DNA of 64,000 bases from an uncultured Gemmatimonadales bacterium (GCA_963821525.1 CAWGED010000005.1:196675-260674); one strand, 5' to 3'. Numbered from the stretch's first letter, positions 1,572 to 45,965 are shown. Translations and numbers: made by a program. Notes: generated by a model from the sequence alone, not told the origin.

Positions 1572-1605
1572 CCTCCTCAGTCCTCAGTCCTTTCCCTCAT
1601 TACTT
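1572..1605. repeat. heptamer array (CCTCAGT-type), half-element of the 7-nt periodic repeat family
   Basis: tcctcag tcctcag tcctttc cctcatt. 1576-1590 is the exact reverse complement of 45857-45871. Confidence 0.6.
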
Positions 1606-1612
1606 TCTTTCC

Positions 1613-2338
1613 ATGCCCTCCTACTGGTCCACCACCCGGGCCCCCCGCTACAGCCTCACCTTCGCCTTCCCATTGCTGATCCTCTACGAGTTCATGGCCC
1701 GCGGCCTGTCCGGGCCGGACGGCTCGGGGATCCGGAATGGGGCCGATGTTCTTCTCAAGAGCCTGTTCGTCCTGCTGGGCGGAGGACATGGCCTGACGAT
1801 CTTCGGGGTGCTTCTGCTGGGCACCGGCATAGTCCTGGTGTGGCGAGACCGGCGGAAGAACGGGCCCATCGAGGGCCGGTACTTCGTTGGGATGCTGGCG
1901 GAGTCCGTGGTCTACGCGGTGCTGTTCGGGGTGGTGACGAGCCTGCTCACGACGCTGGTGCTTCAGGGACCGAGACTCCTGGCGCTCGGTCCAATGGAGG
2001 GACAGGGCCTCGGCACCCAGATCATGGTTTCGCTGGGTGCCGGGATCTACGAGGAATTGCTGTTCCGGGTCCTGATTGTCGGGGCGCTGTCGCGGTTTGC
2101 GATCGGGGCCTTCCAGATGAAGCCCTTTCCGGCGGGAGTCTTCGCGACGCTTCTGGGAGCGGTCATCTTCGCGGCATTTCACTATGTCGGCCCGCTGGGC
2201 GACAGCTTCGAGCTGACCTCCTTTACCTTCCGCACCATTGCCGGCGTGTTGCTGAGCGCCCTGTATCTCGTCCGGGGCTTCGGCGTCACGGCCTGGACCC
2301 ACGCGTTGTACGATGTGTTGCTGACGGTGGCGCGGTAG
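1613..2338 (+). CDS. CPBP family intramembrane glutamic endopeptidase (CAAX protease/Abi family)
   Basis: Multi-pass membrane protein with GIYEELLFR (EExxxR), FAAFHY (FxxxH) and a C-terminal H..YD motif. ATG at 1613 preferred over the track start 1553, which overlaps the hairpin. Confidence 0.8.
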   Translation: MPSYWSTTRAPRYSLTFAFPLLILYEFMARGLSGPDGSGIRNGADVLLKSLFVLLGGGHGLTIFGVLLLGTGIVLVWRDRRKNGPIEGRYFVGMLAESVVYAVLFGVVTSLLTTLVLQGPRLLALGPMEGQGLGTQIMVSLGAGIYEELLFRVLIVGALSRFAIGAFQMKPFPAGVFATLLGAVIFAAFHYVGPLGDSFELTSFTFRTIAGVLLSALYLVRGFGVTAWTHALYDVLLTVAR

Positions 2339-2340
2339 CG

Positions 2341-2480
2341 GTCGAGGTCGATGGTCGATGGTCGATGGTCAATGGTCTAAGGTCGTGAGTCTAGGGTCTT
2401 GAGTCTTGTGACCATGACTCATGACCCAAGACCTATGACCAACGACCTATCGACTATCGACTATCGACTATTGACTATCA
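2341..2480. repeat. 7-nt periodic inverted-repeat element A: (GTCNNNN)n facing (NNNNGAC)n
   Basis: gtcgatg x3, gtcaatg, gtctaag, gtcgtga, gtctagg, gtcttga, gtcttgt, then gaccatg actcatg acccaag acctatg accaacg acctatc, gactatc x2, gactatt, gactatc. Centre is gagtc...gactc. Lies between convergent gene ends. Confidence 0.9.
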
Positions 2481-3102
2481 CCCTTCACCCCCGTCCTCAC
2501 CTTCCACAACGAATCCAGAATGTGCCGGTAGGTTTCGAGGGGTGCGGCTCCCTTGAGTAGTCCGGCTCCCTCGATGTAGACCGTCGGCGTGCTGGAGACG
2601 CCGGAGCGGGCGGCCGAATTGGCTTCGCTCTGGATGAGGCCCGGGTTTCCTGCTTCTGGAGACAGGAAACAATCGAGTCTCGCGGCACGCCGGCCGAGTC
2701 GGCGAGCGTGAGGAGAAACGGCGCCGGATCCTTGAGCGGGGCCCACTTGGACTGGTACTGGAAGAGCAGGTCGTGGATCGGCCAGAAATGATCGGCCTTG
2801 GCGGCGCACATCGCGAACTCGGCGGCCGCCCCCGCGTTGGGATGGAGATCGGTGATCGGGAAGTTCACGAAGATCCAGCGCACTTTTCCGGTCGAGATGA
2901 ATTCCTGTTCCAACTGCGGCAGCACTTCCATGGCCTGCTTCCGGCACCAGGGACACTGGAAGTCTGACATTTCGTAGACCGTGACCGGCGCCGTCGGCGA
3001 ACCCTTGGTTCGTGCGGCAACCAGGCCCGGATCCTTGAGCTGCGCCGCGGCGCTCGTGAAGCCGCCGATCGTCAGCAAGAGCGCCAGCATCGGAATTCGC
3101 AT
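2468..3102 (-). CDS. DsbA-family thiol:disulfide oxidoreductase, secreted; frame broken near 2645-2665
   Basis: Signal peptide MRIPMLALLLTIGGFTSAAAQ and the CPWC active site. The C-terminal part (LIQSEANSAARSGVSSTPTVYIEG...) continues in the frame of ORF 2468..2956. Confidence 0.8.
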
Positions 3103-3103
3103 G

Positions 3104-6012: not shown

Positions 6013-6127
6013 GGGAGCTGTTAGCTGTTAGCTATTGGCGGTCAGAAACTAAGAACCCTCCGGGGACACACCGGAGGGTTCGCTTTTCTGGGAGCTGCTA
6101 ACAGCTAATCGCTAACAGCTAGCCGCT
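6013..6127. repeat. 7-nt periodic inverted-repeat element B: (TAGCNNN)n / (GCTANNN)n enclosing a terminator hairpin
   Basis: agctgtt agctgtt agctatt on the left; gcta aca gcta atc gcta aca gcta gcc gcta on the right. Between convergent lemA and M23 peptidase ends. Confidence 0.85.
6054..6089 (+). terminator. rho-independent terminator after lemA
   Basis: AACCCTCCGG (6054-6063) / CCGGAGGGTT (6071-6080), 7-nt loop, then CGCTTTTCT. Confidence 0.75.
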
Positions 6128-7046
6128 AGTCCACCACAACCTGCGGCAGCACGTACCGCAGCGGATCGACCGGCTGGCCACGCACGTGGACCTCGTAGTG
6201 GAGGTGCGGGCCGGTGGCGAGGCCGGTATTCCCCACCTGGGCGATCAGGTCGCCCCGCTTCACCCGCTGGCCCTGGTGCACCAGAATCTTCGAGCAGTGG
6301 GCGAACTTGGTGGTAATCCCATAGCCGTGATCGATCTCGACCGTGTTCCCATAGCCGGTTTCCCAGCCGGTGGAAATCACTACGCCCGCGCCGGGGGACT
6401 GGATGGGGGCGCCGAGGGGGGCCTGCACATCGATGCCCTCGTGCGGCCGCGCGTAGTGCAGGATGGGATGCTCCCGCATCGAGGCAAATGCACTCGTGAG
6501 CCAGCCCGTGGTGGGCATGATGGACGGCATCGCCACCAGCCGATCGCGGTGGGCGGAGATGCTGTCCGTGGCTTCTTTGAACGAGAAGGCCAGCAGGTTG
6601 GCCCGACGGATCAGGCCGGCCAGATCCACCCGGACCTCCTCGGCCCGGCGGGCGAGCACGTTGATCGGCCGCGCGATCGCACCCTCGGGGGCCGGGCCAC
6701 CGATACCGGCCTGCTGCACCTGGGGATCGTTGGGCTCCAGGTTCGCCATCAGGCGAATCTTGGCGTCTCGCTGGGCGATGAGGCGCAGGGTATCCGACAG
6801 GACGTCGACCTTGCCGTTGAGCTGGCCGATCTGCTCGGCCAAGTCGGCGTTTTCACGCTGGAGGGCGGAACTCCGCTGGAGACTGACGCTTCGTGAAACG
6901 GTGGCGTAGCCGAGAAGGAGGGCGGAAAGGACGAGGACCACACCGAAGCCGGCTGCGATCTTCAGCAGCGCCTGAGATACCTCGACTGCTTTCGAGGCAC
7001 CTGAGCCAGGTGGCACGATGACAAGAGTCCACTTCCGTTCGCCCAT
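6126..7046 (-). CDS. M23 family metallopeptidase with N-terminal membrane anchor and coiled coil
   Basis: HEGIDVQAPLGAPI...GYGNTVEIDHG...GNTGLATGPHLHYEV. Confidence 0.9.
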   Translation of the reverse strand: MGERKWTLVIVPPGSGASKAVEVSQALLKIAAGFGVVLVLSALLLGYATVSRSVSLQRSSALQRENADLAEQIGQLNGKVDVLSDTLRLIAQRDAKIRLMANLEPNDPQVQQAGIGGPAPEGAIARPINVLARRAEEVRVDLAGLIRRANLLAFSFKEATDSISAHRDRLVAMPSIMPTTGWLTSAFASMREHPILHYARPHEGIDVQAPLGAPIQSPGAGVVISTGWETGYGNTVEIDHGYGITTKFAHCSKILVHQGQRVKRGDLIAQVGNTGLATGPHLHYEVHVRGQPVDPLRYVLPQVVVD

Positions 7047-10688: not shown

Positions 10689-10711
10689 TTCGTTTCTAAG
10701 AGAGGAGCCCC

Positions 10712-10770
10712 AAGCCCGAAGCCGTAAGCCATAAGCATGAGAGCCTAAGGCCTATGGCTTATGGCATTCC
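10712..10770. repeat. 7-nt periodic inverted-repeat element C (CCGTAAG/CCATAAG vs CCTATGG/CTTATGG)
   Basis: ccgaagc cgtaagc cataagc atgagag cctaagg cctatgg cttatgg. Lies between the dnaE stop and the accA start. Confidence 0.75.
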
Positions 10771-10807: not shown

Positions 10808-13800
10808 TTAGCCTGCCCGAACATACTGCACGTGCTCGGCACCCAGCAACCTGCGGAGTCCCTGGATCAGCTCCTCATCCGGGGCAATCCTGACCCGTCT
10901 GGACCGGGCCCTCAGCCGCTCTCCATTCCCGTCGCTCCATTCAATATAGAGCGGAGCCGGGCCCGGGTGAGCGGCGCAGAGCGCTACGGCTTCCTTGATT
11001 CGCTCGGGGGGCGGGGCTTCTGGTGCCTTCCAGCGGAGCGCCACGCCGAGGGCTCCGCTGGGTATGAGCTCATCGAGCGGCCGCGCCAATTCTACGACGA
11101 ACGGTGCCCGTTCCTCCCCGCGATCCCGGGCGCTGTAGCCGCCCGTGAGCAGCACAGGCAAATCGTCACGGATCACCTGGTTGAGCCGGGCCCAGGCGTC
11201 CGGGAAGACGATGGCTTCCGCCGTCCCGTGGAAATCCTCGAGGGTGATCCGGGCGTACTCCTTCCCGGTCTTCTTGGAGATCTGCCGTTTCACCAAAGTG
11301 ATGACCGCCGCGATCGTCACCTGGTGTTCACTCCATTCTCCGAGCGTGCTCGTGGTCCGGGTGCCGAACACTTCAACCTCGGCGCGGAACCGTTCCAGCG
11401 GATGGCCCGAGATGAAGAAGCCCAGGACCTCCTTCTCCTTCGCCAACCGGTCGGCTTCACTCCATTCGGGCACTTCCGGCAACGTCTCCTGGTGATGCCG
11501 CGCGGCGACCGCATCTCCGAACAAGGAGGCTTGTCCCGCCTCCCGCTCCTGTTGGGCCAGTTGTGCTTCGCCCAGCGCCTCATCCAGCCCAGCCGCGAAC
11601 TGCGCGCGGTGCCCGCCCAGGGAGTCCAGCGCACCTGCAGCGACGAGGGATTCGATCACCCGCTTGTTGGCGAGGCGCAAATCAATCCGGCTGGCGAAGT
11701 CTGGCAGTGATTTGAACGGCGCGTCCTTCCGCGCGGCGATGAACGAGTCGATTGCCCCGCGCCCCACGTTCCGCACCGCGCCCAGCCCGAAGCGCAGCCT
11801 CCGGTCTCCAATCACCGTGAACTTGAACCCCGACTCATTCACGTCGGGTGGGAGCACCTCGAGGTCCAGCTCCCGGGCCTCGTTGATGTACTGCACCACC
11901 TTGTCAGTATTCCCGATTTCGGACGAGAGCAGCGCAGCCAGAAACTCGGCGGGGTAGTAGGTCTTGAGCCACGCCGTCTGGTACGACAGGAGCGAGTAGG
12001 CGACCGAGTGCGACTTGTTGAAGCCGTACCGGCCGAAGGTCTTGATCTGGCCTCCCAGCTCCTCCGCCAGTCTGCGCTGAATGCCGTTGGCGACGGCCCG
12101 CTCGATGAACCGCCCAACTTCCTTGTCGATGAGCTCCTGATCTTTCTTGCCTACTGCCTTCCGCAGCACGTCGGCTTCGGCCAGGCTGTATCCCGCGAGC
12201 ACGTTCGCGATGCGCATCACCTGCTCCTGGTAGGTGATGACGCCATAGGTCGGCTCGAGCACCTCGGCAAGCAACGGATGCGGGTAGGTAACCGTTTCCT
12301 GTCCCAGCTTGCGCCGAATGAAGACCAGGTGCATGCCGGCATCGAGCGGCCCGGGACGCAATAGCGCGTTCGAAGCCACCAGATCATCGAACCGGTCGCA
12401 CTTCATGTTGCGTAGGGTGTCGGTGGCCAGCGGAGATTCGAACTGGAATACGCCGGCCGTCCGGCCGTGCCTCAGCATCTCGTAGACTTTGGGATCGTCG
12501 AGCCCCAGCGTGTCCATGTCGAGCGTAATGCCGTGACGCTCCTTGATCATTTCGATCGCATCGTGGATCACGGTCAGCGTCTTGAGGCCGAGCATGTCCA
12601 TCTTCAGCATGCCGACCTTCTCGAGGGCGTCCATTTCGTACTGCGTGATGATCGCGTCTTCGCCCTCGGCCGTGGCCCCGGCGCCCTTGGTCGGCGCGGT
12701 GCATACCGGTACGTACTCGGTAAGTGGTCCCGGAGCGATCACCACTCCCGCCGCATGCACCGACATGTGCCGGGAGATGCCTTCGATTCGGGAGCCCAGA
12801 CGTCACCAGCCGGCTGTACACCGGATCGTTCCGCACCAGGTCCCGGAGCTCGGGTACTCGGTCTACGGCCTCTTCGATGCTCAGGCTGTAGGCCGGTCCC
12901 GAGGGGATGAGCTTGGTGAGCCGGTCGGCGTCACTGGGCGGGATCCGCAGCAGCCGGGCTACGTCCTTGAGCGCTGCCCGCGCCTTCAGGGTTCCAAAGG
13001 TGATGATCTGACCCACGCTCTGGCGCCCGTAACGTTCCCGGACGTACTCGATCACTTCACCCCGGCGTTCGAAGCAGAAGTCCACGTCGATGTCCGGCAT
13101 GGATATCCGCTCGGGATTCAGGAAGCGCTCGAACAGCAGATCGAACCTGAGCGGATCGACGTTGGTGATGCCGAGCGAATAGGCGACCAGCGAGCCGGCG
13201 GCGGAACCGCGGCCGGGGCCCACGGGGATCCCGCGCTCCCGTGCCGCCGCGATGAAGTCTTGTACAATCAGGAAGTAACCCGCGTATCCCGCCTTGTTGA
13301 TCACCCCGAGCTCGTAGGCCAGCCGCTCCTGGACTGCCTGGGGCAAGGGTGAGCCGTACCGGGCGCTGGCTCCTTGCCGCGCGAGATCCTCCAGGAGCTG
13401 CTCATCACTCGTGTGCGTGGCAGGGCGGGGGAAACTCGGGAGGAAATACTTCTTCTCGAAGCTGAATTCGCAGAGGTTGGCCACCTTCGCCGTATTGGCC
13501 AGGACCTCCGGCGTGCGCTCGAACAGCGCCGCCATCTCCCGCTCCGACTTGACGTACGACTCCTGCCCCATGAAGCGGAATCGCTTCGGGTCGTCCAGTT
13601 CGGCGCCGGTTCCGATCGCGAGCAGTACGTCGTGGGCCTCGGCATCCTCCCGCCGGAGGTAGTGCGCGTCATTGGTAGCGACGACTCCAAGGCCCAACTC
13701 CTGGCCCAGCTGGAACATTCCGGCATTCACCTGGACCTCTTCCGGAATGCCGTGCTGCTGCACCTCCAGCCAAAAGCCGTCCGGTCCGAAGGTCCTGGCG

Positions 13801-14288
13801 AACCATTCGGCGGAGCGCTTCGCCTCCTCGTAGTTGCCTTGCCGCAGGTAGAGCGAGATCTCCCCAGACAGACATGCCGCGAGCCCGACCAGTCCCTCGG
13901 AATGTTCCGCGAGGACTTCCTTGTCGATCCGCGGCCGGCGGTAGAAGCCCTCCAGATAACCGATGGAGCTCAGCCGGACCAGGTTCCGGTAGCCCGCACG
14001 GTTCTTTGCCAGCAACACGAGATGGCTGTAGATCCCGGGCGCGCCCTGCGGCTTCTGCTGATTTCTTCGGGAACCGAAGGCGAGATACGCCTCGAAGCCG
14101 AGGATCGGGCGGATGCCCTTCGCCTTGGCGTGATCGTAGAACGACCATGCCGCGTGAAGGTTGCCGTGGTCCGTCACGGCCAGGCTGTCCATACCGAGGC
14201 GCTTTACGTGATCAACCAGCTCGGGTATTCGGTTGGCGCCGTCGAGGAGGGAGTACTCGGAGTGGGTGTGGAGATGAACGAATGCCAT
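10808..14288 (-). CDS. dnaE: DNA polymerase III subunit alpha; frame broken near 12791-12806
   Basis: MAFVHLHTHSEYSLLDGA (PHP domain) in ORF 12384..14336. Continues as GSRIEGISRHMSVHAAGVVIAP... in ORF 10808..12766. Confidence 0.95.
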
Positions 14289-14373
14289 GGTAGTTCGCTG
14301 TCCACGGTTCCTCGTCGCGATCCTGCCGTGCCGCATGCGCGGCCGGCCCCAATCGCTGATGGCCCGCGAACAG

Positions 14374-17068: not shown

Positions 17069-17258
17069 GCGGTGAACAGGGAACCGGGAAAGGGAACCGG
17101 AGCAGGGTGAACTGATCTAGCACCTCATCCCGAGGAGTTACGTCGCGAGCAGGATCTCCCTGCCTTGACACTTCGGATAGGACGCTAGATCCCTCGCTGC
17201 GCTCGGGATGAGGTTCTCACCCGGTCCCGCATTCCCCTTCCGCCCTCCCGCCTTACCG
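17069..17258. repeat. 7-nt periodic inverted-repeat element D with a nested inner palindrome pair
   Basis: Outer arms ggtgaac agggaac cgggaaa gggaacc ggagcag ggtgaac vs gttctca cccggtc ccgcatt cccctt.. The core carries CCTCATCCCGAG (17124-17135) and its complement CTCGGGATGAGG (17201-17212). Confidence 0.8.
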
Positions 17259-18293
17259 CCTCAGGGTCACATCCCCCGACCCGGTCTCGATATCAATCCT
17301 CCCCTGACCGTCCCCCAGCTTCGCGATCAGTTTGCCTTCCTCTTTACGGATCAACTGGACCGGAAAGTCCACCTGGAATTCGCCGCTCCCGGTCTCGAGG
17401 CTCAGCTCGGCTCCGACAGCTTCTGGAATTCGCAGGGTGACATTGCCGGAACCGGTCTCCGCGTCCAGCGAATTGACGTCGGTCTCGAGGGTCACCTCCA
17501 CGTCGCCGCTCCCGGCGCTCAGCTCGAGGTCGGTGGACTTGGCGGCGGCGATCGTGATGTTGCCCGAACCGGTCTCGATGTCGAGCCGGGGCGATTCGAT
17601 CTGGCTGCCTTGCACGTTGCCGCTCCCCGTCTCGATGTCGAGGACGGTTCCCTTGAACGTGGTTACCCTGACGTCTCCCGAACCGGTGTCGATATTGAGC
17701 GTGCCGCTGGCCGTCGTCGCCTCGACGTTGCCCGATCCCGTGTCCACGTGGAGCTGACCGCCGACCGAGGTCATCCGGATATCGCCTGAAGCGGCGTCCA
17801 GGCTGATGTCTCCATTCACATTCGAGGCCTCAATCTTCCCCACGCCAAGGAATACGGCGATTCGCTGGCCCTCGGGTACTCGAACCGTGATGTCGGCATG
17901 GGCCTCGAGGCCGTCACCGTCGCCTCTTACCGAGATGCGGCGGGAGTGCTTGCCGCTGTCGCCCCAGGTCCCGTCGTCATTGACGCTGAAGTTGGAATTG
18001 GAGTGGCGGCCGAGAGCGGGATAGACGATGTGATCTTCGGGGAAATTGACTCGGATCGCCGGGCGACCCCTGATCGAGGTGGATTCAACCGTGAGCTTGC
18101 CGGCGTCCTTGCCACCCGGCCTCACTTCGACCTGGACCGAAGGGCCGCTCCCTCGCTCAACCGTCATCTCGCCGACCAGATCGTATACCGCCACGTCCTG
18201 GCCCTGCAGAGTGAAGGTCTTGGTTTGAGCCGCGGCGACAGCGGGGAAGGCAGCCAGCACTGCTACGAGTGTAGAAGAAAGGGCGCGCATCAT
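17253..18293 (-). CDS. DUF4097-family beta-strand repeat protein (putative adhesin), secreted
   Basis: Signal peptide MMRALSSTLVAVLAAFPAVAAAQ. Repeated xxTGSGNVxx / ETGSGDV units. ATG at 18293 chosen over track start 18500. Confidence 0.8.
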   Translation of the reverse strand: MMRALSSTLVAVLAAFPAVAAAQTKTFTLQGQDVAVYDLVGEMTVERGSGPSVQVEVRPGGKDAGKLTVESTSIRGRPAIRVNFPEDHIVYPALGRHSNSNFSVNDDGTWGDSGKHSRRISVRGDGDGLEAHADITVRVPEGQRIAVFLGVGKIEASNVNGDISLDAASGDIRMTSVGGQLHVDTGSGNVEATTASGTLNIDTGSGDVRVTTFKGTVLDIETGSGNVQGSQIESPRLDIETGSGNITIAAAKSTDLELSAGSGDVEVTLETDVNSLDAETGSGNVTLRIPEAVGAELSLETGSGEFQVDFPVQLIRKEEGKLIAKLGDGQGRIDIETGSGDVTLRR

Positions 18294-24968: not shown

Positions 24969-24983
24969 TTAGCCTTCCCGTTC

Positions 24984-25096
24984 GATTGAAGATTGAAGAT
25001 TTCAGATTGAAGATTAAATGCGTTTCCGCTGGACCTTGGCGATGGCAGATTCGAAACTGAAACAATCTGCAATCTGAAATCTTCAATCTGAAATCC
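24984..25096. repeat. 7-nt periodic inverted-repeat element F (GATTGAA-type vs AATCTGA-type)
   Basis: gattgaa gattgaa gatttca gattgaa gattaaa ... aatctgc aatctga aatcttc aatctga aatcctc. Shares CAATCTGCAATC (25063-25074) with element J. Confidence 0.9.
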
Positions 25097-28880: not shown

Positions 28881-28958
28881 AGGTAGTGGGTTGTAGGTGG
28901 TAGGGAGTAGGTGCGGCATCCCCACTCCCTACTCCCCACTCCCTACTCCCTACTCCCT
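28881..28958. repeat. 7-nt periodic inverted-repeat element H (GTAGNNN vs CCCYACT), intercistronic pdhA-pdhB
   Basis: gtagtgg gttgtag gtggtag ggagtag gtgcggc | atcccca ctcccta ctcccca ctcccta ctcccta ctccctg. Confidence 0.9.
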
Positions 28959-33380: not shown

Positions 33381-33935
33381 TTAGTTGCTGGTTGAAGCCT
33401 CCACGGAGGGGGCCGAAACCTGGGAACTCACCACGAAACGGATCCACATTCCTGAATGCCCGTGCCCCGGCACTCCGCAAATTATCCGGTACTCCGCAGC
33501 GGGTTCGGCCTTGAAGCGCATGGTGTCCTTCTGCCCCTGGGCGAGTCCCTGCGTGGCTTCCCGAGTGTAAGCTCTAGGGATCGCCGCTTCTTCCGCCATG
33601 TTCGGTATCGGCCCCTCGGCGGGAATCATCACGGCACTGTGCGGGGTGCCATCATCATTCACGAAGGGCATCACGACGGTGGATCCGGCCGGTACTGTGA
33701 GAGTGAGTTCTCCGTTGGTAAAGCCGTTGAAGTTGAACGGACTCTTGGCTCCCCCGGTGAGCCCCGCAATCAACTTGAAGGAGACCGTCTTGGATGCTGA
33801 ATCATAGCTGAGCCAGGTTGAATCAATTGGAAAATGACCGGCGTGTTGCGCTTCGGTGGTCTGCGTCGCCGCCGTGCGGGCAGCGACCAGAGCCGCAAGA
33901 ACTAGCAGAACCTGCCGGGACTCTCGCCAAATCAT
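33381..33935 (-). CDS. sulfocyanin/rusticyanin-type cupredoxin (type 1 blue copper protein), secreted
   Basis: His ligand in DDGTPHSAVM, then C-GVPG-H-GHSG-M-W (C-x4-H-x4-M; 33447-33479). AGGAG plus ATG at 33935 preferred over the GTG at 33962, which abuts the hairpin. Confidence 0.8.
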   Translation of the reverse strand: MIWRESRQVLLVLAALVAARTAATQTTEAQHAGHFPIDSTWLSYDSASKTVSFKLIAGLTGGAKSPFNFNGFTNGELTLTVPAGSTVVMPFVNDDGTPHSAVMIPAEGPIPNMAEEAAIPRAYTREATQGLAQGQKDTMRFKAEPAAEYRIICGVPGHGHSGMWIRFVVSSQVSAPSVEASTSN

Positions 33936-34002: not shown

Positions 34003-34053
34003 TCAAGATAGAACCGGCAAGGGCCTATGAGGAAGCCTCGCCGATCGCCCCGG

Positions 34054-35722
34054 TCATGCGGGGGGCGTATACGCCTTCGGCAGGCCGAAGATGTACACGC
34101 TGTTGCCCAGCGGGTAGCTCAGCTGGAAGTTGCCACCGCAGGCCACCGCGATGAACTGCTCGTTCTTGAACTGTGTAGGTCATCGGAGCGGAGTTGCATC
34201 CGGCGCCCGCCTGGAACTGCCAGAGCAGCTTCCCGGTGCGGGAATCGTAGGCGTTGAAATTCCCGTTGCCTTCTCCGGTGAAGACGAGCCCGCCGGCCGT
34301 CGCCAGGGCCCCGCCCATCATCGGCTGCGGCACCTTCACCTGCCACGCCTTCTTGCCGGTGCCGAGGTTGAGCGCCGTGAACGAGCCCGTACTGCTCCTC
34401 ACCCGGCGATCGCGACGAAGGCCGAACCGAGCCACAGTTTTCCCTTGTCCCACGGCGGCGTTGTGGGTGATGTAGTTCATCGGCTGATGGAGGCCTGCTA
34501 CGAAGGCGTAGTTGAGCTTGGGATCCACCGCGATCGGCGACCACTCTGCACCGCCGTTGGCGCCGGGAAGCATCCGGGTACCCGAAGCGGTGGGCTGGGC
34601 GAACATGTTTTCCTGCGGGGTGAAGTTCTCAGTCTTGCGCACCAGCGTGCCGGTTGCGGCGTCCAGCACGTAGACCCAGGCGGTCTTGCCGGCATGGACC
34701 ACGACCTTCTTGCCGCCCAGCGTGGTGACGACCGGCGGGGACACGGCGTCGAGGTCCCACACGTCGTGCGGAACCGTCTGGTAGTACCACTTGGTCTTGC
34801 CGGTTGTCGCCTCGATGGCGACGACGCAGTCGGTGTACAGGTTATCGCCCGGGCGCACGCTGCCGTCGAGGTCGGGCGAGGGGTTACCAACCGCCACGTA
34901 GATGAGACCGAGGCTCTGGTCGTAGGCCGGAGTCATCCAGACGCCGCCGCCGCCGCGGGTCCACGCGTCCGCGTACTTGGCGCTGTCCGACTTCTCGGCG
35001 CCGGTGTTGCGGTTCAGGTTGTTGCCTTCGGGGGTCGCGTCAACCCAGTTGCCGTACCAGCCATTGGGAGCCGCCTCATCGAAGGTGGGATCGCCCTTGG
35101 GAGCGGGAATCGAATACCAGCGCCAGACCTGCTTGCCGGTCACCGCATCGTAGGCGGTCACGTGGCCCCGGATGCCGTATTCACCGCCCGAGACACCGAC
35201 GATCACGTTGTTGCCGATGACAAGCGGCGCGTGGGTGATGCTGTAGCCGAAGGCCGGATCGGCCACCTCGTTGTCCCAGACAACGTCACCGGTCATCCGG
35301 TCGAAGGCGATGAGGTGGGCATCGAGGGTGCCCATGTAGACGTGCGGGCCATGCACGCCCACGCCGCGGTTGTTGGGGCCGCAGCAGAAGATCGTAGTGC
35401 CGAGCTTGTGCTCGTAACGCCAGACCTGTTTCCCGGTGTCGAGGTTGTACGCGATCAGGGTGTTGTACGGGGTGGTCACGTACATCATGTTCTCAACCAC
35501 GATCGGCGTATTCTCGAACGAGCCGAGCTTGCTGATCCCGGTCTGGAAGACCACCCGAGGCACCAGCGACTTCACGTTTGTGGTATTGATCGCCGTAAGC
35601 GTGGAGTAGCGCTGGTTCCAGTCATTCCCGCCATACGTCATCCACTTGGTCTGGGCGGAGAGGTTGCTGGCAGCCGCTGCGCAAACGAGCATGGCCAGAC
35701 CCCAACGAGAAGCACTGCGCAT
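34054..35722 (-). CDS. PQQ-dependent alcohol/methanol dehydrogenase family quinoprotein with D-x-D (lanthanide-type) signature; C-terminal frame break near 34168-34178
   Basis: Signal peptide. WMTYGGNDWNQRYSTL, vicinal disulfide FCCGPNNRG, eight-bladed propeller W-motifs, PHDVWDLDAV (DLD at 34748-34756). The true C-terminus FKNEQFIAVACGGNFQLSYPLGNSVYIFGLPKAYTPPA is in a shifted frame, with stop at 34054. Confidence 0.85.
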
Positions 35723-36093: not shown

Positions 36094-37471
36094 TCAGTGG
36101 CCCCGCAGGCGCTCCCGGGCCAGCTCCTCGTCGGACATGAAGTAGCGATCGGGAAGCGGCCGGACCAGCAGGTTGCAGATGAAACCGATCACCAGGAGCC
36201 CAGCCAGGACGTACATAGTCGTGTTATACGCCTCCGCCACTGGTACCCCGCGGTCCACCTGATGTTGCCGGATCTCGTTCACCAGCAGCGGGCCCACGAC
36301 ACCGGCGGTCGACCAGGCCGTCAGCAATCTTCCGTGAATGGCGCCCACAAACTGGGTCCCGAAGATGTCCGACAAATAGGCGGGGATGGTGGCGAAGCCG
36401 CCGCCATACATCGTGATGATCACGCAGAAGATCGCCACGAAGAGCGCGACGCTGCCGATCCGGCCCGCATGCGGGACCAGTGAGTAGAGCACGATCCCAA
36501 GGGCGAAGAAAATGAAGTAGGTCGGCTTGCGGCCGAGCTTATCAGAGAGCGACGCCCACCCGATCCGCCCCCCGATGTTGAACAGACTCAGGAGTCCCAC
36601 GAAGCCCGCCGCGGCGGAGGCCGACACTTTGTCCTTGAAGACCTCCTGGATCATGGGCGATGCCTGTTCCAGGACGCCGATACCGGCGCTCACGTTGGTG
36701 CACAGGACCAGCCAGAGCAGTATGAAGGGCACCGTCTTCCAGGCCACGTCCACGTGAACATGGCGACGAGTGACCATGCTGACATTAGTGGTAGCGGGCG
36801 TCCACCCCGCGGGTTTCCAGTCATTGGGCGGAATCCGATAACTGAACGCGCCGCACATCATCGTCACGAAGTCAGATGAGACCCATCGTGACGAAGGTCT
36901 CCCAAACACCGACCGAGGTCGGCGTGGCGTAGTGCTTCATCAGGATAACGGCCAGCGGCGCCCCGATCATGGCACCGCCTCCGAATCCCATGATCGCCAT
37001 GCCGGTTGCCATGCCGCGGCGGTCCGGGAACCACTTGATGAGGGTGGAAACCGGTGAGATGTATCCCAGTCCGAGTCCGCACCCACCAATCACCCCGTTG
37101 CCGAGATACAGGAGCCAGAGCTGGTGGGTGCGAACGCCGATTGCGGAGATCAGGTACCCTCCACCCCAGCAGAAGGCGGCCGCGACACCCGCCCTGCGCG
37201 GGCCCACTCGCTCGAGCCAGCGTCCGAACACCGCCGCTGACAGACCCAGGAACACGATGAAAATCGTGAACACGAGGGCGATTTGCGTCTGCGTCCAGTC
37301 GCCTGGGCCGGACTCGGTGATGCCGAGGGCACGAGTGAGCGGAAGTTTGAAGACGCTGTAGGCGTAGGCTTGGCCGATCGAGAGATGGATGGCGAGCGCC
37401 GCCGGTGGGACCAGCCACCGATTGAACCCTGGCTTCGCGACAATACGTTCCTTGTCGAGCAGGCCGGACAT
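36094..37471 (-). CDS. MFS transporter, oxalate/formate antiporter (OFA) family; frame broken near 36870-36885
   Basis: NRWLVPPAALAIHLSIGQAYAYSVFKLPL..., FPDRRGMATGMAIMGFGGG. The C-terminal six helices are in ORF 36094..36909. Confidence 0.8.
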
Positions 37472-37540: not shown

Positions 37541-38087
37541 ATGCCAACCGACCCGAACCTTTCGATTCCCTCGCTCACGCGAGCCGGACTCACCAGCCTC
37601 ATGCTCGTCCTGGCGGCGATGGGCACTTTGTCCGCCCAGCAGACCGGCGCGCTTCCCCAGTGGATGACCGCAGATTCGGCGAGTCGAACGGTCTCTCTGG
37701 AGCTCAAGGTTGCATGGAGCTGCGGGTTCGCCAGCGACTATCTCGGGCTACCGCCAGGGGGGCGTGGAGGTCGTGGTTCCGGTCGGCTGGACGATTCGCT
37801 GGCGATGGATCAATGGGGACAGCACCGCGGCGCATAGCCTGGTGGTGATGGTGGAGCGGGAGAAACTGCCGGCTGAAGGCGGCAGCCCGGTGTTCGACAA
37901 CGCGATGAGCCGGAATGTCGTCCGTGGTCTAGGCCCCGGGAAAACCGACGAGACCACATTCACTGCGGATCAGGCGGGGTGGTACTGGCTGCTCTGCGGC
38001 GTCCCGGGCCACGCGCTGGGCGGAGAATGGATCGGTCTGAAGGTGGACGCTGAGGCCAAGGCTCCCGCTGCGACGTTCCGGCAGTGA
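37541..38087 (+). CDS. second sulfocyanin-type cupredoxin, axial Met position occupied by Glu; frame broken near 37706-37722
   Basis: Signal anchor LTSLMLVLAAMGTLSAQQ and WMTADSASRTVSLELKV (parallels WLSYDSASKTVSFKLI of the first copy). Then STAAHSLVVM and C-GVPG-H-ALGG-E-W (Glu codon 38025-38027). Confidence 0.7.
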
Positions 38088-38094: not shown

Positions 38095-38147
38095 GCGTAA
38101 GAAGTAAGAAGTTTTGCCTCTCACTTCTCACGTCTTACTTCTCACGC
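38095..38147. repeat. 7-nt periodic inverted-repeat element I (same sequence family as E)
   Basis: cgtaaga agtaaga ag ttttgcc tctcact tctcacg tcttact tctcacg. Confidence 0.85.
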
Positions 38148-38161: not shown

Positions 38162-39328
38162 TTACCTCTCTTGGAGTAACCCCTCCACTTCCGCCCGCAT
38201 CTCCTTCACCAGCTTCGCGTGCTGCTCCGGCAGGGCGGGGCCATAGAAACCGGCGTGAATCCGACGGACTCGACCAGTGCGGTCGAGAAAGATCGTGGTG
38301 GGGAACGCCGTAAAGTTGGTGAGCTGCGGCAGGGTCGCCGCGGCGGCCTCGGTGTCATTGGTTCCCGCCCGAAGCAGGATGAACGGGATGTGGTAGGCAT
38401 CCCGGTACAGTCGCACCTGGTGATTGTCGGTGGCGCTGTCGCCGCTTACCTCATAGGCGAGTCCGACGATCTCCAGCCCGCGGGCGTGGTAGTCCTTATA
38501 GAGCTGCACCAGGGCGGGGGCCGCGTCGTGGCAGGTGGGGCACCAGGTCCCGAACACGTCGATCACGACCACCTTGTCCTTGAGTCGCGGGTCGGCCTCG
38601 GTGATCTGCCGGCCTTCGAGATCGGGGAAGCTGAAGCGGAACGGTGTCGTGTCCGCCGTCGTGATCTCGCTGGGCGACTTGAGATGAGGAACTCCGGTGC
38701 TGCGGACGGCGATGAATCGGGTCTGGGTTCGGAGGCCGGCGTGGAAGATCCCGCGGAGGGTGTCTGCCTTAAGCTGGCCGGTCAGCATGTAGACGTAGGA
38801 GCCGTCGAAGTGGGAGATCGAAAAACTGTCCGCCTGCGCATGTCCCCAGAAAAGACCGTAGTCCCCCGTGTTGGAGATGATGGTTCCCTCGAGGCCCGCC
38901 TGGCCATTGCGTAGCTCGATGACGCGAGGGCTCGCGTCGAAATCGGTCAGGAACTGCGCGTCCCAGCGACCGGTCAGCCCCGCGGGACCTTTCTCGACCG
39001 GCCAACGGCCGCGTCCCGCGCGAAAAGGAATGGTGCGGGGTCCGCGCCGTCCTACGTTGTGATACTCCCCGACCAGGGAATCCCCTCTGGCCACCGCGGC
39101 AATGGTGGCTGCGTAGGCCGAGATGTCGAACACCACGCTGTCGCCGGCGACGCGTACCGCGCTCAGCGCCTGGCACTGCGTCCCATTGCAGAGCTTACCC
39201 TGCCACGTTCCTCCCTTTTGTTCTACCGTGAGCGCGAAGCGAAGAGGGCCTCCGGCAATGTCGAGCACGGCCCGCCACGGGCCAGCGGGGGTGGGAGCGA
39301 CAGTGAGGGCTAGGAGAAGCGTAAACAA
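38162..39328 (-). CDS. TlpA-family thiol:disulfide oxidoreductase with large N-terminal domain
   Basis: VVVIDVFGTWCPTCHDAAP thioredoxin-fold motif. The track start 39409 reads through repeat J. TTG at 39328 followed by FTLLLALTVAPTPA (signal-like) is proposed. Confidence 0.75.
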   Translation of the reverse strand: MFTLLLALTVAPTPAGPWRAVLDIAGGPLRFALTVEQKGGTWQGKLCNGTQCQALSAVRVAGDSVVFDISAYAATIAAVARGDSLVGEYHNVGRRGPRTIPFRAGRGRWPVEKGPAGLTGRWDAQFLTDFDASPRVIELRNGQAGLEGTIISNTGDYGLFWGHAQADSFSISHFDGSYVYMLTGQLKADTLRGIFHAGLRTQTRFIAVRSTGVPHLKSPSEITTADTTPFRFSFPDLEGRQITEADPRLKDKVVVIDVFGTWCPTCHDAAPALVQLYKDYHARGLEIVGLAYEVSGDSATDNHQVRLYRDAYHIPFILLRAGTNDTEAAAATLPQLTNFTAFPTTIFLDRTGRVRRIHAGFYGPALPEQHAKLVKEMRAEVEGLLQER

Positions 39329-39429
39329 TTGACGATTGACGATTGATGATTGATGATTGAACTGCTGTGGACTCGAGATGATTACCAATCTGCAATCGGC
39401 AATCGGCAATTACCAATTGGCAATCATCA
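39326..39429. repeat. 7-nt periodic inverted-repeat element J (GATTGAC/GATTGAT vs CAATCNN; same family as F)
   Basis: attgacg attgacg attgatg attgatg attgaac ... attacca atctgca atcggca atcggca attacca attggca atcatca. Confidence 0.9.
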
Positions 39430-40170
39430 GTACTTCTCCCCGGCACGAATCTCCGCCGACACCCGATTCCCCGGCCACGGCGCCGGGCAGGCGTACGCGG
39501 TGCTGTAGGCGCAGAAGGGATTGCGCGACCGGTTGAAGTCGAGCAGGTAGGTGCTCTCGTCGCGCGGAGTCAGAGTGACGAACCGCCCCGCCGGATAGCT
39601 CCCCTTTCCATTGGTCAGATCCTGGAAATAGATGATCAGCTCCGACTCGCCGCTGTCTTCATCGGCGATCCGGTAGGCCTTGAGATTGGCGGCACCTGAC
39701 TCGAGCGGGATGGTGAAGACGCCGGCCTCTATCGCTTCGGTTTCCACTCCGTCCAGCATGAGAATTCGGTGTGTCACCCGGCTGGCTGGCTTGGTCAGGC
39801 TGCCTATTAGGACGAGGTGAGTATCGGCCGGAAAGTAGCTCGGTATGAGAGTACGGTGCTCCGGGCCGAACACGGTGAGGACGGACCGGCCAGAGGGCCC
39901 CGTCGGCCGGAGCTGGTAGGATCCAATGGCGGTGAGGCGGTCGCGAGGCAGGGGTGTCTTGGTCCCCTGTTGGCTCAGCACCACGCTGCGCCCTTCTTCC
40001 CGCACCGTCATGCGCGTCGAGTTCTTGAGCGGGACGTCGGCGTCCTCCGGTCCGAGCGTGAGCCCCGTTCCGATGGCCTGCTGGGCCAGCGCGGCCAGAG
40101 GTGAATCGGGGGCGTTGGCCAGCCAAAGGGCGAATGCGCTCCGCTCCGCGACGAGGTCATCTCTGGGCAG
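39427..40170 (-). CDS. DUF1684 domain protein; start codon unresolved
   Basis: NRSRNPFCAYSTAYACPAPWPGNRV C-terminal signature. Conserved-looking sequence (AERSAFALWLANAPDSPLAAL) continues in frame upstream of the listed ATG (40011), with no ATG/GTG/TTG before the upstream stop. A CTG lies at 40170. Confidence 0.65.
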   Translation of the reverse strand: MPRDDLVAERSAFALWLANAPDSPLAALAQQAIGTGLTLGPEDADVPLKNSTRMTVREEGRSVVLSQQGTKTPLPRDRLTAIGSYQLRPTGPSGRSVLTVFGPEHRTLIPSYFPADTHLVLIGSLTKPASRVTHRILMLDGVETEAIEAGVFTIPLESGAANLKAYRIADEDSGESELIIYFQDLTNGKGSYPAGRFVTLTPRDESTYLLDFNRSRNPFCAYSTAYACPAPWPGNRVSAEIRAGEKY

Positions 40171-40310
40171 TAAGCGGTGAGCGGTGAGCAGTGAGCAGGA
40201 GTGGAATAATCAGTGTGGTGCGGATTGCCGAGGCGAACCCGCGCCGAGGGAAGACCACCTCTGCTTTCGGTGCCCGCCGCTCACCGCTCACTGCTTACCG
40301 CTCACAGTAG
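40168..40310. repeat. 7-nt periodic inverted-repeat element K (GGTGAGC/GTAAGCG vs CTCACCG/CTTACCG)
   Basis: cagtaag cggtgag cggtgag cagtgag ... ccgctca ccgctca ctgctta ccgctca c, with a ~75-nt core. Confidence 0.85.
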
Positions 40311-42933: not shown

Positions 42934-42946
42934 GGTGGTATTAGCT

Positions 42947-43013
42947 GCAGCCGTCAGCCGTCAGCCGTCAGCCATAAGCTCACGCGTCGAGCTTACGGCT
43001 TACGGCCTATGGC
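42947..43013. repeat. 7-nt periodic inverted-repeat element L (GCCGTCA/GCCATAA vs CTTACGG/CTATGGC; related to C)
   Basis: gccgtca x3 gccataa gctc acgcgtcg agc ttacggc ttacggc ctatggc. Confidence 0.9.
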
Positions 43014-44262
43014 CCCGTAAAAGGGATTGATCTCCTTCGCCATCTCCAACCGCTCCCGCGACAGCAACGAATCCCCCAGTGCCGCAGCGATCTGGCCGGC
43101 ATGCCAGTAGAGCATCGCGTCGCGAGTGCCTTGTGACAGGGCCTGCTCGACGAGCGGAGCCGCTTCGATATCGCGGCCCGACTGGTGTAAGGCCCAGGCG
43201 ACGAGGTCGTAACCGTAGACATCCTTGCGCGTGCGCAGTTCCTCGCTTGCCTTTCGCAGCACAAGAGGAACATCCCGGCCGTGATCCAGCAGGAAGAGGG
43301 ACCAGGCTCTGTGAAAGGCGCCGGGCTGCTGGCTCACCGATACTTCCATCGCCTTGGCGTATTCCGCGGCCTTCGCGGTGTCGCCCTCCGCCGCATAGCA
43401 ATCGCTGAGGAGTCCCAGCGTCGCTGGGTCCAGCACGTTCGCGATCGCCCGTTCGCCGAAACGAATCGCGCCCGACCAATCCTTCTTTGCCGCGTGGAGC
43501 CGTGCCTCAGCACCAAGCAGCCGGTAGTCTTCGGGTGCTTCGCTCAATCCAGAGGCGAATGCCTTGCCAGCCTCGCGGAGCCTTCCCCGACGAAGTTCCA
43601 GATCACCAATTCGCAGATCGAACCAGGCGAGCTGCTCGGCAGGGACGCGGAAGCCGTTGTCCAGGTCGCGACGCACCGAGCGCAGCAGGTCCAGGGCCTC
43701 CACCGGCCTGCCTTCCAACTCGAGCCAGCGGGCGTAGCGGGGCGCCAGTGCCGGTGCATAGCGCTGAGTCGCGATCGTGGAGAAGAGCCGCTTCGCTTCC
43801 TCGTAATGCCCCAGTTCGAGCGCGATCTCGCCCAACATCGCGCGTGTGCCGGGCTCCGAGGAGTCGGCCGCAACCAGTGCCTTCGCCGTCGTGTACGCCT
43901 CGGTGAATCGGTGTTCGGCCAGCAGGGCCGAAGCGAGGAGTGCTGCGGCCTCGCCGTTTCTCCTCGCGCGATGACGATAAGAGGTGCGGGCCGCGTCTTC
44001 CGCTCGAAGCAGGTCCTGATAACTCCCGGTTTCTCGCGCCCGCGCGAGATAAAGGCTGCCGAGCATTGCAAGGTCGCGTGCGCCGTAGGGATCGCGGGCC
44101 ACCCGGGCCTGGTAGAAGGCGATGTCCTGTTCTCGGATCTCGGCGGGAAGGCGGGAAGGTGGTACGGCGGGACGCTTGCTCGTCCGCATGGTGAAACGAC
44201 CAGCCAAGCAGACCAGCGGACGCCAACATGGTAAGAATTCCAAACTGCAGTCGACGAGTCAT
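42993..44262 (-). CDS. TPR-repeat protein with N-terminal signal anchor; frame broken near 44165-44195
   Basis: Multiple TPR-like helices (YGARDLAMLGSLYLARARETG..., GHYEEAKRLF...). The anchor MTRRLQFGILTMLASAGLLGW lies in the frame of ORF 43603..44262. Confidence 0.65.
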
Positions 44263-44362
44263 CGCCAGGTACTCCCAGTCGCAAGAGCCATCGGTTGGTG
44301 ATCAGCGCCGAAGCGGACGGGTGGGCGTTGTGACCGTCCAGCCCGTCCGCCTTCCCGCCCGC

Positions 44363-44950
44363 CTAGTTCGGCGGCGCCAGATACGGGAAGCTCGCCGAGA
44401 ACGGCGAGTCGCTCGCCACGTTATCAGTTGTCAGAGCCGGCGTAGTGTGGGTCGGATCGGCGCCAAACGGATCGCCGAAGATCGCGAGCAGCGCGAGATC
44501 CACTACGTCGTCATCCAGCTTCCGCCCACCCCAGCCGTTCACCAGCGGCGGCAGGTCCACGATGTTGAGCCAGCTGGCGGTATTGGTCGGCTTGTCGGTC
44601 TGGACTACCAGCACATCCGGCAGCAACACGCTGCCCAGCGCGCTGATGTATGCGGGATCGCGTCCCGCGACGGTGGTCACGAAATTCACCACCTTGGGCG
44701 CCACCAGAGCCGCATCCTGGTCGGGGCCGATCGAGCCATGCAGCGAGTGGTCCCGCTTGTCGAGCAGCACTTCGCTGATCAGAGGATTGCCCAGCCGCTG
44801 GACCTGGTTGAAGGCCTGGTTGGGATCGGGGCCGGCGGTGCCACCGCTGTTGCTATCGTCGCTGCAGGCGCCGGCCAGCAGCGCAAGCCCGAGCGCGAGG
44901 CCGGGCAGGACCACGCGGCGCAGGGCCGGCAAATCGATGGAGTTCTTCAT
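44363..44950 (-). CDS. lipoprotein matching the C-terminal half of DUF4331
   Basis: Lipobox LALLAGAC|SDD. RLGNPLISEVLL...GRKLDDDVVDLAL. The ATG at 44980 is an alternative start. Confidence 0.65.
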   Translation of the reverse strand: MKNSIDLPALRRVVLPGLALGLALLAGACSDDSNSGGTAGPDPNQAFNQVQRLGNPLISEVLLDKRDHSLHGSIGPDQDAALVAPKVVNFVTTVAGRDPAYISALGSVLLPDVLVVQTDKPTNTASWLNIVDLPPLVNGWGGRKLDDDVVDLALLAIFGDPFGADPTHTTPALTTDNVASDSPFSASFPYLAPPN

Positions 44951-44994
44951 GAGAGCTATCCTCGGAGTCGGGTCAGTCATGGTGTGGGAGGTCT

Positions 44995-45723
44995 TCAGCG
45001 GCTGATGGTGCCCCAGATGTTGAGCTTGCCGGGCGCTCCATTCTCAAGCATCGAGCTGGGCAGCTCGACCACGATCGAAAGCACGTTGAAGCCTTCGATG
45101 TAGTTCACCCCGGGATTCCGGAAGGCGGCACCGCCGGGGAGTGCGCAGGGCTGTGAGAGGGCACCGGTCGAAGGACGCCGGTCAGGCAGGATGCAGAAGG
45201 CCGCCTCGAGATCGAGGAAGAACGAATCGTCCCGGGGGCCGGCGAAGGCCTGAATGCCGCTGGCCGAACCAAGATTGGTGTTGAAAGCGCCACTCAGGTC
45301 CGTGGCGCCGAAGTCGATCACGTTCATCATGGCGCCGGTTACCGTCGGCGTGAACGGACCGCGGACGTGAACCGTCTGGCTGGTGGTTTTGCCGTCGAAG
45401 GTGACCTGAATGACCTTGTCTTCGACGTAGTCTCCATCGTTGTCCACCTTGAACTGATAGAGAATGTTCGGATCGAACGCGGCGGACCCGGTCTGACCCG
45501 GGCTGAGGAATCCGCTGGTATTCATGACCAGCACGATTCTGCCCGGGGCCGAGCCGGGGAACGCGTACACGTCGGTGAGATCCATTCGGGGGTTGAGTTC
45601 CACCAGAGGAGTGTCCTGGTGGTCCGAGCCCGCCAGCAGTCTCACGCCGCCGGCCAGTGCGCCGGTGAGGACGAGGATTGCGGCGAGCCGCTGGGTGCGT
45701 GGAAGGGCGCGCCAAGGGTACAT
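44995..45723 (-). CDS. secreted protein matching the N-terminal half of DUF4331
   Basis: GSDHQDTPLVELNPRMDLTDVYAF...ILYQFKVDNDGDYVED...NVLSIVVELP. Confidence 0.7.
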   Translation of the reverse strand: MYPWRALPRTQRLAAILVLTGALAGGVRLLAGSDHQDTPLVELNPRMDLTDVYAFPGSAPGRIVLVMNTSGFLSPGQTGSAAFDPNILYQFKVDNDGDYVEDKVIQVTFDGKTTSQTVHVRGPFTPTVTGAMMNVIDFGATDLSGAFNTNLGSASGIQAFAGPRDDSFFLDLEAAFCILPDRRPSTGALSQPCALPGGAAFRNPGVNYIEGFNVLSIVVELPSSMLENGAPGKLNIWGTISR

Positions 45724-45850
45724 GACCGGACTCCTGGAGATGAGAGTGACGAAGCCTGGGACCGTCGGCGACGGAGACCGTCTCCTTCGCCTGCGCCCCA
45801 TCTACGCCCGTCACCGGGGTCCGGATCTATGGCCTATGTATGAGTGGAAA

Positions 45851-45965
45851 GGACTGGGACTGAGGACTGAGAGGTAGCGAGTACCTGGTACCGAGTACCG
45901 AGTACCGAGAAGCTCAGCTTACCGCTCACCGCTTACCGCTCACCGCTTACCGCTTACCGTTCACC
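45851..45965. repeat. element M: three consecutive heptamer arrays (GACTGAG, GAGTACC, CTTACCG/CTCACCG), not a simple hairpin
   Basis: ggactgg gactgag gactgag | gagtacc tggtacc gagtacc gagtacc | cttaccg ctcaccg cttaccg ctcaccg cttaccg cttaccg. Confidence 0.85.

Follow-up and report, generated by a model that had tools for sequence, protein, structure and literature searches.

The spacers between the genes of a 64-kb stretch of DNA from an uncultured Gemmatimonadales soil bacterium (GCA_963821525.1, CAWGED010000005.1:196675-260674; 64,000 nucleotides, called here the window) contain arrays of tandem 7-nucleotide units, most of which face an array of the complementary unit and can fold with it into long hairpins. 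These arrays match a described class, the intergenic heptameric simple sequence repeats (SSRs), including the paired repeats of Xanthomonas (PMC4692102, PMC6344855). A first-pass annotation, made from the sequence alone, had taken them for an element type that it did not recognize; a match to an already described repeat family was among the outcomes it had listed as speaking against that claim, and such a match was found. What differs here is the phylum, Gemmatimonadota, the presence of at least eight unit types side by side and, for most of these, the lack of G-quadruplex potential. We propose, with moderate confidence, that the elements are heptanucleotide microsatellites organized as convergent inverted arrays ("palindromic microsatellites"), which turn over by slippage at the ends of genes.

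Seven nucleotides, together with the multiple 14, is the sole short period enriched in the window. Tandem Repeats Finder detects about 35 period-7 arrays, at the coordinates reported by the first-pass annotation. A scan of the whole window for self-matches at different lags finds, at a threshold of at least 18 of 21 positions, nine segments at lag 7, seven at lag 14, one at lag 12, and none at lags 3-6, 8-11, 13 and 15. The same threshold gives no lag-7 segments in 20 dinucleotide shuffles, a comparison of the kind that the annotation had proposed for the spacers of the source genome. Lowering the threshold to at least 17 of 21 raises the number of lag-7 segments to 15, versus 0-2 at lags 5-11. 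The arrays all lie within gaps between predicted genes, a few of them overlapping the last 1-5 codons of an open reading frame (ORF). The statement that 12 or more intergenic sites are built from tandem heptamers is therefore upheld, except that one of these sites, element D, is only marginally periodic.

Thirteen sites were considered, lettered A-F and H-M plus one half element. A partner was accepted when it lay at most 350 nt away and had the reverse-complement consensus unit with no more than two mismatches per unit; it was found in this way for A, B, C, E, F, H, J, K and L. The partner array of element I was recognized by eye, its 5' arm of 2.3 units being too short for the detector, so that ten hairpin elements are counted. 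RNA folding, expressed as z-scores against 200 dinucleotide shuffles, gives -11.3 for A, -9.0 for B, -7.3 for K, -6.7 for H, -6.5 for F, -5.0 for E, -4.6 for L, -4.5 for I, -3.4 for J and -2.2 for C, while gaps without arrays are mostly near 0. A complementary array at nearly every site had been claimed; this stands for the ten hairpins and fails for element M, which forms no hairpin (z -0.1), and for the half element.

The elements are quite diverse in their units. Element A (2340-2483) fills a convergent gap from the stop codon at 2338 to the stop codon at 2497, with about ten GTC-N4 units (2340-2408) facing about ten N4-GAC units (2409-2483) and a dG of -87.1 kcal/mol. The GTC/GAC core is kept in 10 of 10 units; homogeneity is seen in the outer units and divergence in the inner ones, and every outer pair carries an identical G.T mismatch (GTCGATG versus TATCGAC); therefore each arm expanded alone, at its outer end and after divergence. 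Element B (6013-6128) consists of an AGCTGTT array (6013-6043) and an AACAGCT-type array (6093-6128), and the TAG of its units coincides in register with the stop codon of each convergent gene. Its centre is a canonical bidirectional terminator (6053-6081 plus T tract), found on both strands. Element E (22336-22495) is similarly composed of a GTRAGNN array (22336-22375), the first unit of which holds the TAA stop of the upstream gene, and a CTYAC array (22444-22495), with a canonical terminator between them (22407-22444). The annotation had described GC hairpins with T tracts enclosed in B and E, and both are there.

Element I (38095-38147), in a convergent gap, has the same unit type as E, with GTAAGAA repeated 2.3 times facing four TCTCACN units. 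Element C (10706-10770) occupies the dnaE-accA spacer with five AAGCCNN units facing four of GGCTTAT type; this spacer is 119 nt long in the window versus 1-10 nt in 13 of 15 Gemmatimonadota relatives. Element F (24981-25099), which starts directly after the lpdA stop codon (25097, - strand), has five GATTGAA units facing five of TTCAATC type, and element H (28881-28963), which accounts for all the DNA separating E1-alpha from E1-beta in a 2-oxoacid dehydrogenase operon, has four GGTAGNN units facing seven CCCYACT units with a 14-nt higher-order period. In element J (39321-39429) six GATTGAY units, the first containing the TGA stop of the upstream (- strand) gene, face six CAATCNN units. Element K (40164-40310) adjoins the stop of an anti-sigma factor gene (40312) and has five GGTGAGC units facing five GCTCACC units around a structured 65-nt centre. 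Element L (42942-43014) has five CAGCCGT units facing four ACGGCTT units, and the end of a TPR gene falls inside the array, in such a way that the protein ends in ...YGAIGRKP* versus ...YGP* in the relative L098.

Element D (17069-17262) is a long imperfect inverted repeat (folding -91/-94 kcal/mol). Its 5' arm is rich in G (GGGAACN-like, period 6-7) and its 3' arm in C, and lag 7 scores no higher than other lags (14/21 versus 14/21). Element M (45850-45971) comprises three successive arrays, GGACTGA x3, GTACCGA x5 and GCTYACC x8. The half element (1572-1605), unpaired and in a divergent gap, carries 2.6 units of TCCTCAG, which read on the opposite strand as GGACTGA, identical to the unit of the first array of M. 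Directly upstream of it, at 1528-1570 (+), there is a terminator-like structure formed by a 15-bp GC-rich hairpin (1528-1561) followed by CCTGCTTTTC. It is placed in the divergent gap between the Kdo transferase and CAAX protease genes, about 50 nt before the start of the latter, and could be a 5' leader or attenuator.

Comparison with closely related genomes shows that the arrays behave as hypermutable microsatellites. The relatives are metagenome contigs, labelled here by L-numbers (for instance L091 and L127), and those nearest to the window derive from environmental metagenome assemblies of the Joint Genome Institute (JGI). The strain-level comparison covers elements B and I-M; exact-protein look-ups for six further flanking genes gave no matches. 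A LemA protein with exactly the window's sequence is encoded on nine metagenome contigs. Among them, element B differs by +7 nt (L083), -7 nt (L084) or -9 nt (L087), each time in one arm, while the central terminator and the coding flanks are conserved. Over an alignment of 6156 nt, L090 and L091 are distinguished by a single substitution and a single 7-nt insertion (GGTACTC), the latter in the array orthologous to element M. Unit gain or loss in one array is thus at least as frequent as substitution over several kilobases. The arrays gain and lose 7-nt units, sometimes 14-nt doubles, far faster than the flanking DNA acquires substitutions, and the two arms change independently.

At the species level, relatives with about 91-97% DNA identity to the window across 36-49 kb of alignable blocks retain heptamer arrays, usually hairpins, at I, J, K, L and M wherever the spacer could be extracted, with the exception of L in L098. 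Nonetheless, the orthologous spacers hardly align, and both the number and the sequence of the units differ. Element J is an example of mirrored arm changes, which the annotation had suggested looking for: the units TGATTGA/TCAATCA of the window are GGAATGA/TCATTCC in L091, two substitutions per unit that are present in all units and mirrored in the opposite arm, the hairpin being kept (spacer -64 kcal/mol). In both L091 and L093, element K is rebuilt with units of GTGAGAA type, the hairpin of element I has been lost in L093, and element L is absent from L098, where the spacer measures 24 nt. This last state could be the ancestral seed of L or a loss, and parsimony favours deletion. Entire arrays are therefore remodelled or lost among close relatives, while most orthologous sites keep an array and usually a hairpin.

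The arrays are found in 12 of about 43 window gaps of at least 40 nt, with none in the eight divergent gaps versus 12 in the 35 convergent or co-directional ones (one-sided Fisher p=0.054), which agrees with the location at gene 3' ends that had been annotated. The element extends from one stop codon to the other in convergent gaps. In co-directional gaps it adjoins the upstream stop, with 55-150 nt remaining to the next start (J, K, M). The arrangement is alike in L091, L093 and L127, whose arrays begin between -15 and about +20 nt relative to the upstream stop, and several ORFs terminate within an array.

The two arms are also not equivalent. Of 15 independent hairpins from the window and its relatives, 13 combine a G-rich 5' arm with a C-rich 3' arm (binomial p=0.007), a polarity that, by symmetry, applies whichever strand is read. 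In the five canonical terminators found in the window, by contrast, the 5' side is the C-rich one (Fisher p=0.0014). Units of the 5' arm contain a TAA, TAG or TGA triplet in 23 of 31 arm readings, versus 16.5 expected from letter shuffles (p=0.02; the readings are not fully independent), and those of the 3' arm in six of 31. Since 7 is coprime to 3, such a unit places a stop in every frame within three repeats, which would let an array overlap the end of an ORF. Stop-codon content was considered as the cause of the arm polarity and accounts for it just in part: the triplets are enriched, yet the stop-free units GGTCGAT, GGGAAGC and GGAATGG follow the same G-rich 5' rule.

These features can be compared with those of systems already described. 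Rehm et al. (2015) described (GGGANTN)n arrays in two Xanthomonas genomes, about 185 per genome and mostly intergenic (PMC4692102). The heptamers, GGGAATC/GGGANTN, have a conserved core and variable positions, and form 70-75 convergent inverted pairs capable of stem-loop formation, with the G-rich strand 5' on each strand; they lie at a mean of 28 nt from the upstream ORF versus 160 nt from the downstream one, just 7-8% of them are between divergent ORFs, and 83% are kept in the same gene context between species (Xcc versus Xac) with altered length and sequence (PMC4692102). The window arrays resemble them in the core/variable structure of the units, in the convergent pairs that form stem-loops, in being nearer to the end of the upstream ORF and rare between divergent ORFs, and in the gene context retained with differing length and sequence. 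The differences are that Xanthomonas has one family of GGG-tract units, able to form G-quadruplexes, while the window units are of many types (GTCNNNN, AGCTGTT, AAGCCNT, GTRAGNN, GATTGAN and GGTGAGC, among others) with GGG runs only in D and H, none being a GGGAATC/GGGANTN unit with G-quadruplex potential. The phylum is also different, and the arms reach about 70 nt.

In a wider sense, tandem heptamers are the commonest intergenic periodic repeat among 7006 prokaryotic genomes (Mori et al., 2019, PMC6344855). Heptanucleotides are also the most abundant class of long SSRs in most SSR-rich genomes according to Mrazek (2007), as cited in PMC4679880, where long SSRs are said to be sporadic and lineage-specific and slippage tied to the stretch of DNA in contact with the polymerase is given as the proposed cause. 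The likeness to these long SSRs (units of 5-11 nt), as the cited accounts present them (PMC4679880, PMC4692102, PMC6344855), lies in the dominance of 7 nt, the intergenic location, the sporadic occurrence and the slippage origin proposed. In those same accounts the arrays are treated as direct repeats, and the paired hairpin arrangement and its chirality fall outside the definition. As a heptameric SSR should, the window element shows head-to-tail 7-nt copies above chance, outside coding sequence, with polymorphism in unit number among close genomes. Within the literature library that was searched, no report of heptamer repeats in Gemmatimonas or Gemmatimonadetes was found.

The cyanobacterial STRR are other intergenic tandem heptamers, with the units CCCCAGT, TTGGTCA and CAACAGT; identity with them was rejected because the unit sequences differ and the host belongs to Gemmatimonadota by AccA similarity. 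The STRR and the TAACTGA repeats of Beggiatoaceae share with the window arrays an intergenic location and a variable copy number, and a post-transcriptional role has been suggested for them (PMC4679880). They are, however, single defined units, and TAACTGA is found just upstream of start codons in 169 direct sets versus one inverted set (PMC4679880), whereas the window arrays follow stop codons and are mostly inverted pairs.

The trait is sporadic and lineage-specific, as it is for long SSRs. Arrays are few or lacking at the accA locus of most Gemmatimonadota relatives, and L005, L010 and L015 are examples with the window-type hairpin architecture. Close relatives carry 1.2-3.2 arrays per 10 kb (contigs of more than 8 kb), while the density is 5.6-6.1 per 10 kb in the L126/L127 lineage (68-69% GC), whose longest arrays have 15 units. 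GTGAGTA hairpins occur in L168, a 1.36-Mb contig with 46% GC. The arrays of these more distant lineages, in L127 (1294-1390, 2993-3098 and 10746-11131) and L168 (9058-9152 and 9984-10111), are much longer than those of the window and include CAGCCGT x14, TCACGTC x15, GTGAGTA x12, and GTGAGAA x12 facing CTCACTT x14 across a 200-nt loop; some long single arrays of L127 have no partner. Certain units recur: GTRAGNN in E, I, K, M, L126/L127 and L168, and CAGCCGT in L, L097 and L127. L126 and L127, which over 8156 nt are otherwise identical, are separated by a 19-nt insertion (at position 126 of L126) in a GGCGGACGGGC-type repeat; therefore, repeats with periods besides 7 are unstable in that lineage as well.

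The mechanism that we consider for the palindromic microsatellites may be described as follows. The arrays would arise by replication slippage with a preferred 7-nt step, for which the polymerase-contact idea of Mrazek is the sole published proposal. They could be seeded on both flanks of a pre-existing intergenic stem or ORF end and grow outward until halted by coding sequence; homogeneity is highest in the outermost units. Sense-side units tend to hold a stop triplet, so that an array may overlap an ORF end. The arms would remain complementary through their origin as the two strands of one stem and through the persistence of hairpin versions, by selection for the hairpin or by intrastrand template switching. 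As part of a 3' untranslated region or of intercistronic RNA, the arrays are predicted to form very stable hairpins, probably acting as REP/BIME do, as an exonuclease barrier or by partial termination. This effect on the transcript would be a side effect or a weakly selected role with no conserved sequence-specific function. An RNA-level role is plausible from the position of the elements, and any REP-like effect would be secondary.

Several observations weigh against such a slippage origin, or at least against its sufficiency. Slippage alone does not explain the preference for 7 nt, leaves the G-rich 5' arm bias (13/15) unaccounted for, and does not account for an invariant core of 3-5 nt amid drifting unit positions. 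The same unit types at unlinked sites and in distant lineages hint at a sequence preference or at copying between sites. That an array, usually a hairpin, persists at the majority of orthologous sites although its sequence has turned over completely suggests a degree of selection instead of strict neutrality.

Selection is the basis of the alternative that retains a real, if minor, probability: that the hairpins are RNA elements which terminate transcription, protect mRNA 3' ends or serve RNase III, and that 7-nt repeats are the cheapest route to lengthen a stem. The elements do follow stop codons and fill convergent gaps, several of which hold a heptamer hairpin or else a canonical terminator (both in the case of B and E); gaps with arrays fold far better than their shuffles while most other gaps do not; and the hairpin potential outlasts sequence turnover in most orthologues, with changes mirrored in both arms. 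However, selection on the sense transcript should introduce G.U pairs and make the sense strand fold better, and no such advantage exists in 13 co-directional hairpins (six favour sense and seven antisense). This lack of strand bias is neutral to mildly negative for an RNA-level function and fits a strand-symmetric process at the DNA level. Intrinsic terminators resemble the elements in their location after stop codons and in their stable hairpin, but here the stems are 20-70 bp long with a G-rich 5' side, a chirality opposite to that of the canonical terminators of the window, and no T tract follows the stem in A, C, F, H, I, J, K and L; the definition of an intrinsic terminator fits just the centres of B and E. 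C and H are inside essential operons that need read-through for the expression of accA and E1-beta (dnaE-accA; E1-alpha/E1-beta), and therefore these hairpins cannot be efficient terminators. Element L is missing from L098 and the hairpin of I from L093, and neither M nor the long single arrays of L127 have a partner. The transcript-level role put forward in the first-pass annotation remains an inference.

A more elaborate proposal, which we regard as improbable, is that the arrays, instead of being passive microsatellites, form a self-renewing gene-end hairpin system with polarity, in which the G-rich 5' arm would run from the stop codon with a stop-like URR triplet every 7 nt and a factor working in a 7-nt register would set read-through or mRNA stability at the ends of dozens of genes. 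The factor would be a ring-shaped or cooperative protein of the HutP/TRAP type, a cold-shock protein or the terminating ribosome. If true, this would explain the dominance of heptamers in prokaryotic intergenic DNA.

Quite improbable, too, is the simpler idea of periodic sites for an oligomeric RNA- or single-stranded DNA-binding protein reading a 3-nt core every 7 nt, which would unfold the hairpin by attaching to its 5' arm and in this way control read-through at the ends of many genes. HutP reads (UAG-N4)3 and a cold-shock domain covers about 7 nt. Several arrays read (TAG-N4)n or (TRA-N4)n, the constant core alternates with variable positions, the stop triplets exceed expectation in the 5' arm, and cold-shock, S1 and CsrA proteins have been proposed for the TAACTGA repeats of Beggiatoaceae (PMC4679880). 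Nevertheless, the cores vary among sites (GTC, TAGC, GTRAG, GATTG, GG) and among strains at one site, some 5' arms have units without any stop triplet, and no candidate protein is found among the window genes. A rotation-optimised consensus of 41 unit types has an information content of 4.09, versus 3.92 +/- 0.13 in shuffled units, and therefore there is no single recognition sequence. Repeated sequence-specific protein binding, another of the roles contemplated by the annotation, is thus unlikely.

REP and BIME of enterobacteria and pseudomonads are hairpins of transcribed spacers, either inside operons or at their ends and not in promoters, and they affect the transcript by protection from 3' exonucleases and partial termination. 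Each REP is a copy of one conserved consensus, 20-40 nt long and with a GTAG/CGTC head, and RAYT transposases mobilise these copies. The window elements share with them the genomic niche, the ability to form hairpins and a likely effect on the transcript, and differ in having no shared consensus, an internal 7-nt periodicity and unit-step differences between strains. A mobile family, MITE-like or REP-like with a RAYT/Y1 transposase, that inserts palindromic cassettes after genes is very unlikely. The elements are certainly dispersed, palindromic and intergenic, they show presence/absence differences (C versus the relatives, L versus L098), and identical unit types exist at unlinked sites (E/I, K/M, C/L, F/J and M/half element). 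However, an all-against-all BLAST of the 13 sites confines the shared similarity to 15-29 nt of repeat units, with no common ends, core or target duplications; this agrees with the annotation, which did not recognize them as REP/BIME or MITE, and contradicts the notion of a family of homologous copies. Conserved ends or duplications at the borders were likewise lacking in the comparisons of B and I-M with relatives, near-identical strains differ by single-unit steps inside one arm, and no transposase or RAYT (Y1) domain is found among about 60 window ORFs. CRISPR, likewise not recognized by the annotation, does not apply to contiguous 7-nt units, as its repeats are of 23-47 nt with unique spacers of comparable length, and Rfam covariance models at gathering score give no matches in the whole window. 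A small hairpin beside C and L, seemingly shared, was too short to score and is coding sequence in L. Finally, chance or assembly artefact has a negligible probability, given that shuffles yield no lag-7 segments and that independent metagenome contigs, assembled from other samples, bear the same elements at matching positions, even if the apparent frameshifts in conserved window genes suggest indel errors.

Whatever their origin, the palindromic microsatellites of the window add a phylum and a comparative set, with many unit types in one genome and relatives at both strain and species level. Any model of the 7-nt step and of the pairing is constrained by arrays that mutate in 7-nt steps on the time scale of single-nucleotide polymorphisms, by both hairpin arms being remodelled together across short evolutionary distances, by an arm polarity that is fixed and opposite to that of ordinary terminators, and by the anchoring of the arrays at stop codons. 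From a practical point of view, the arrays are high-resolution strain markers for uncultured Gemmatimonadota, and annotators should be aware that ORF ends and spacers are unstable at array sites.

The window is otherwise ordinary chromosomal DNA with 64% GC. It encodes housekeeping functions such as accA, dnaE, metG, the 2-oxoacid dehydrogenase operon, lipA/lipB, cytochrome bd and an ECF sigma/anti-sigma pair, and a scan of its whole length detected no tRNA genes. Its AccA is closest to those of Gemmatimonadaceae/Gemmatimonadales metagenome-assembled genomes (top identity 87%), and therefore the source is a Gemmatimonadota bacterium.

Some conserved genes are broken into two ORFs in differing frames with complementary halves of Pfam domains: dnaE (10808-14336), lpdA (25097-26492), E1 alpha (28943-29966), an MFS transporter (36094-37471) and cytochrome bd subunit I (58548-59899). 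For instance, one part of dnaE (12384-14336) encodes PHP and positions 2-216 of the NTPase domain, and the other (10808-12766) encodes NTPase positions 210-260 plus the finger, HHH and OB domains, while in the relative L002 the gene is a single ORF of 1174 aa. This suggests indel errors of the source assembly or pseudogenes. Because of these apparent frameshifts, some of the irregular 6- or 8-nt units in the arrays may be sequencing indels. Ten 1-nt indels in coding DNA also distinguish the contig L121 from the window.

A DUF4331 protein (44363-45723) is also encoded by two overlapping ORFs, for the N-terminal (44995-45723) and C-terminal (44363-44950) parts. The split is at the identical place in the independent relatives L090, L091 and L093, and so it may be genuine (two genes or a programmed frameshift) and not an error; L121 has the junction as in the window, plus extra 1-nt indels. 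As a separate matter from the repeats, two genes for sulfocyanin (SoxE)-like blue-copper proteins (33381-33935 and 37710-38087) are located near a gene for a pyrroloquinoline quinone (PQQ)-dependent dehydrogenase (34025-35692), with which they may form a periplasmic electron-transfer module.

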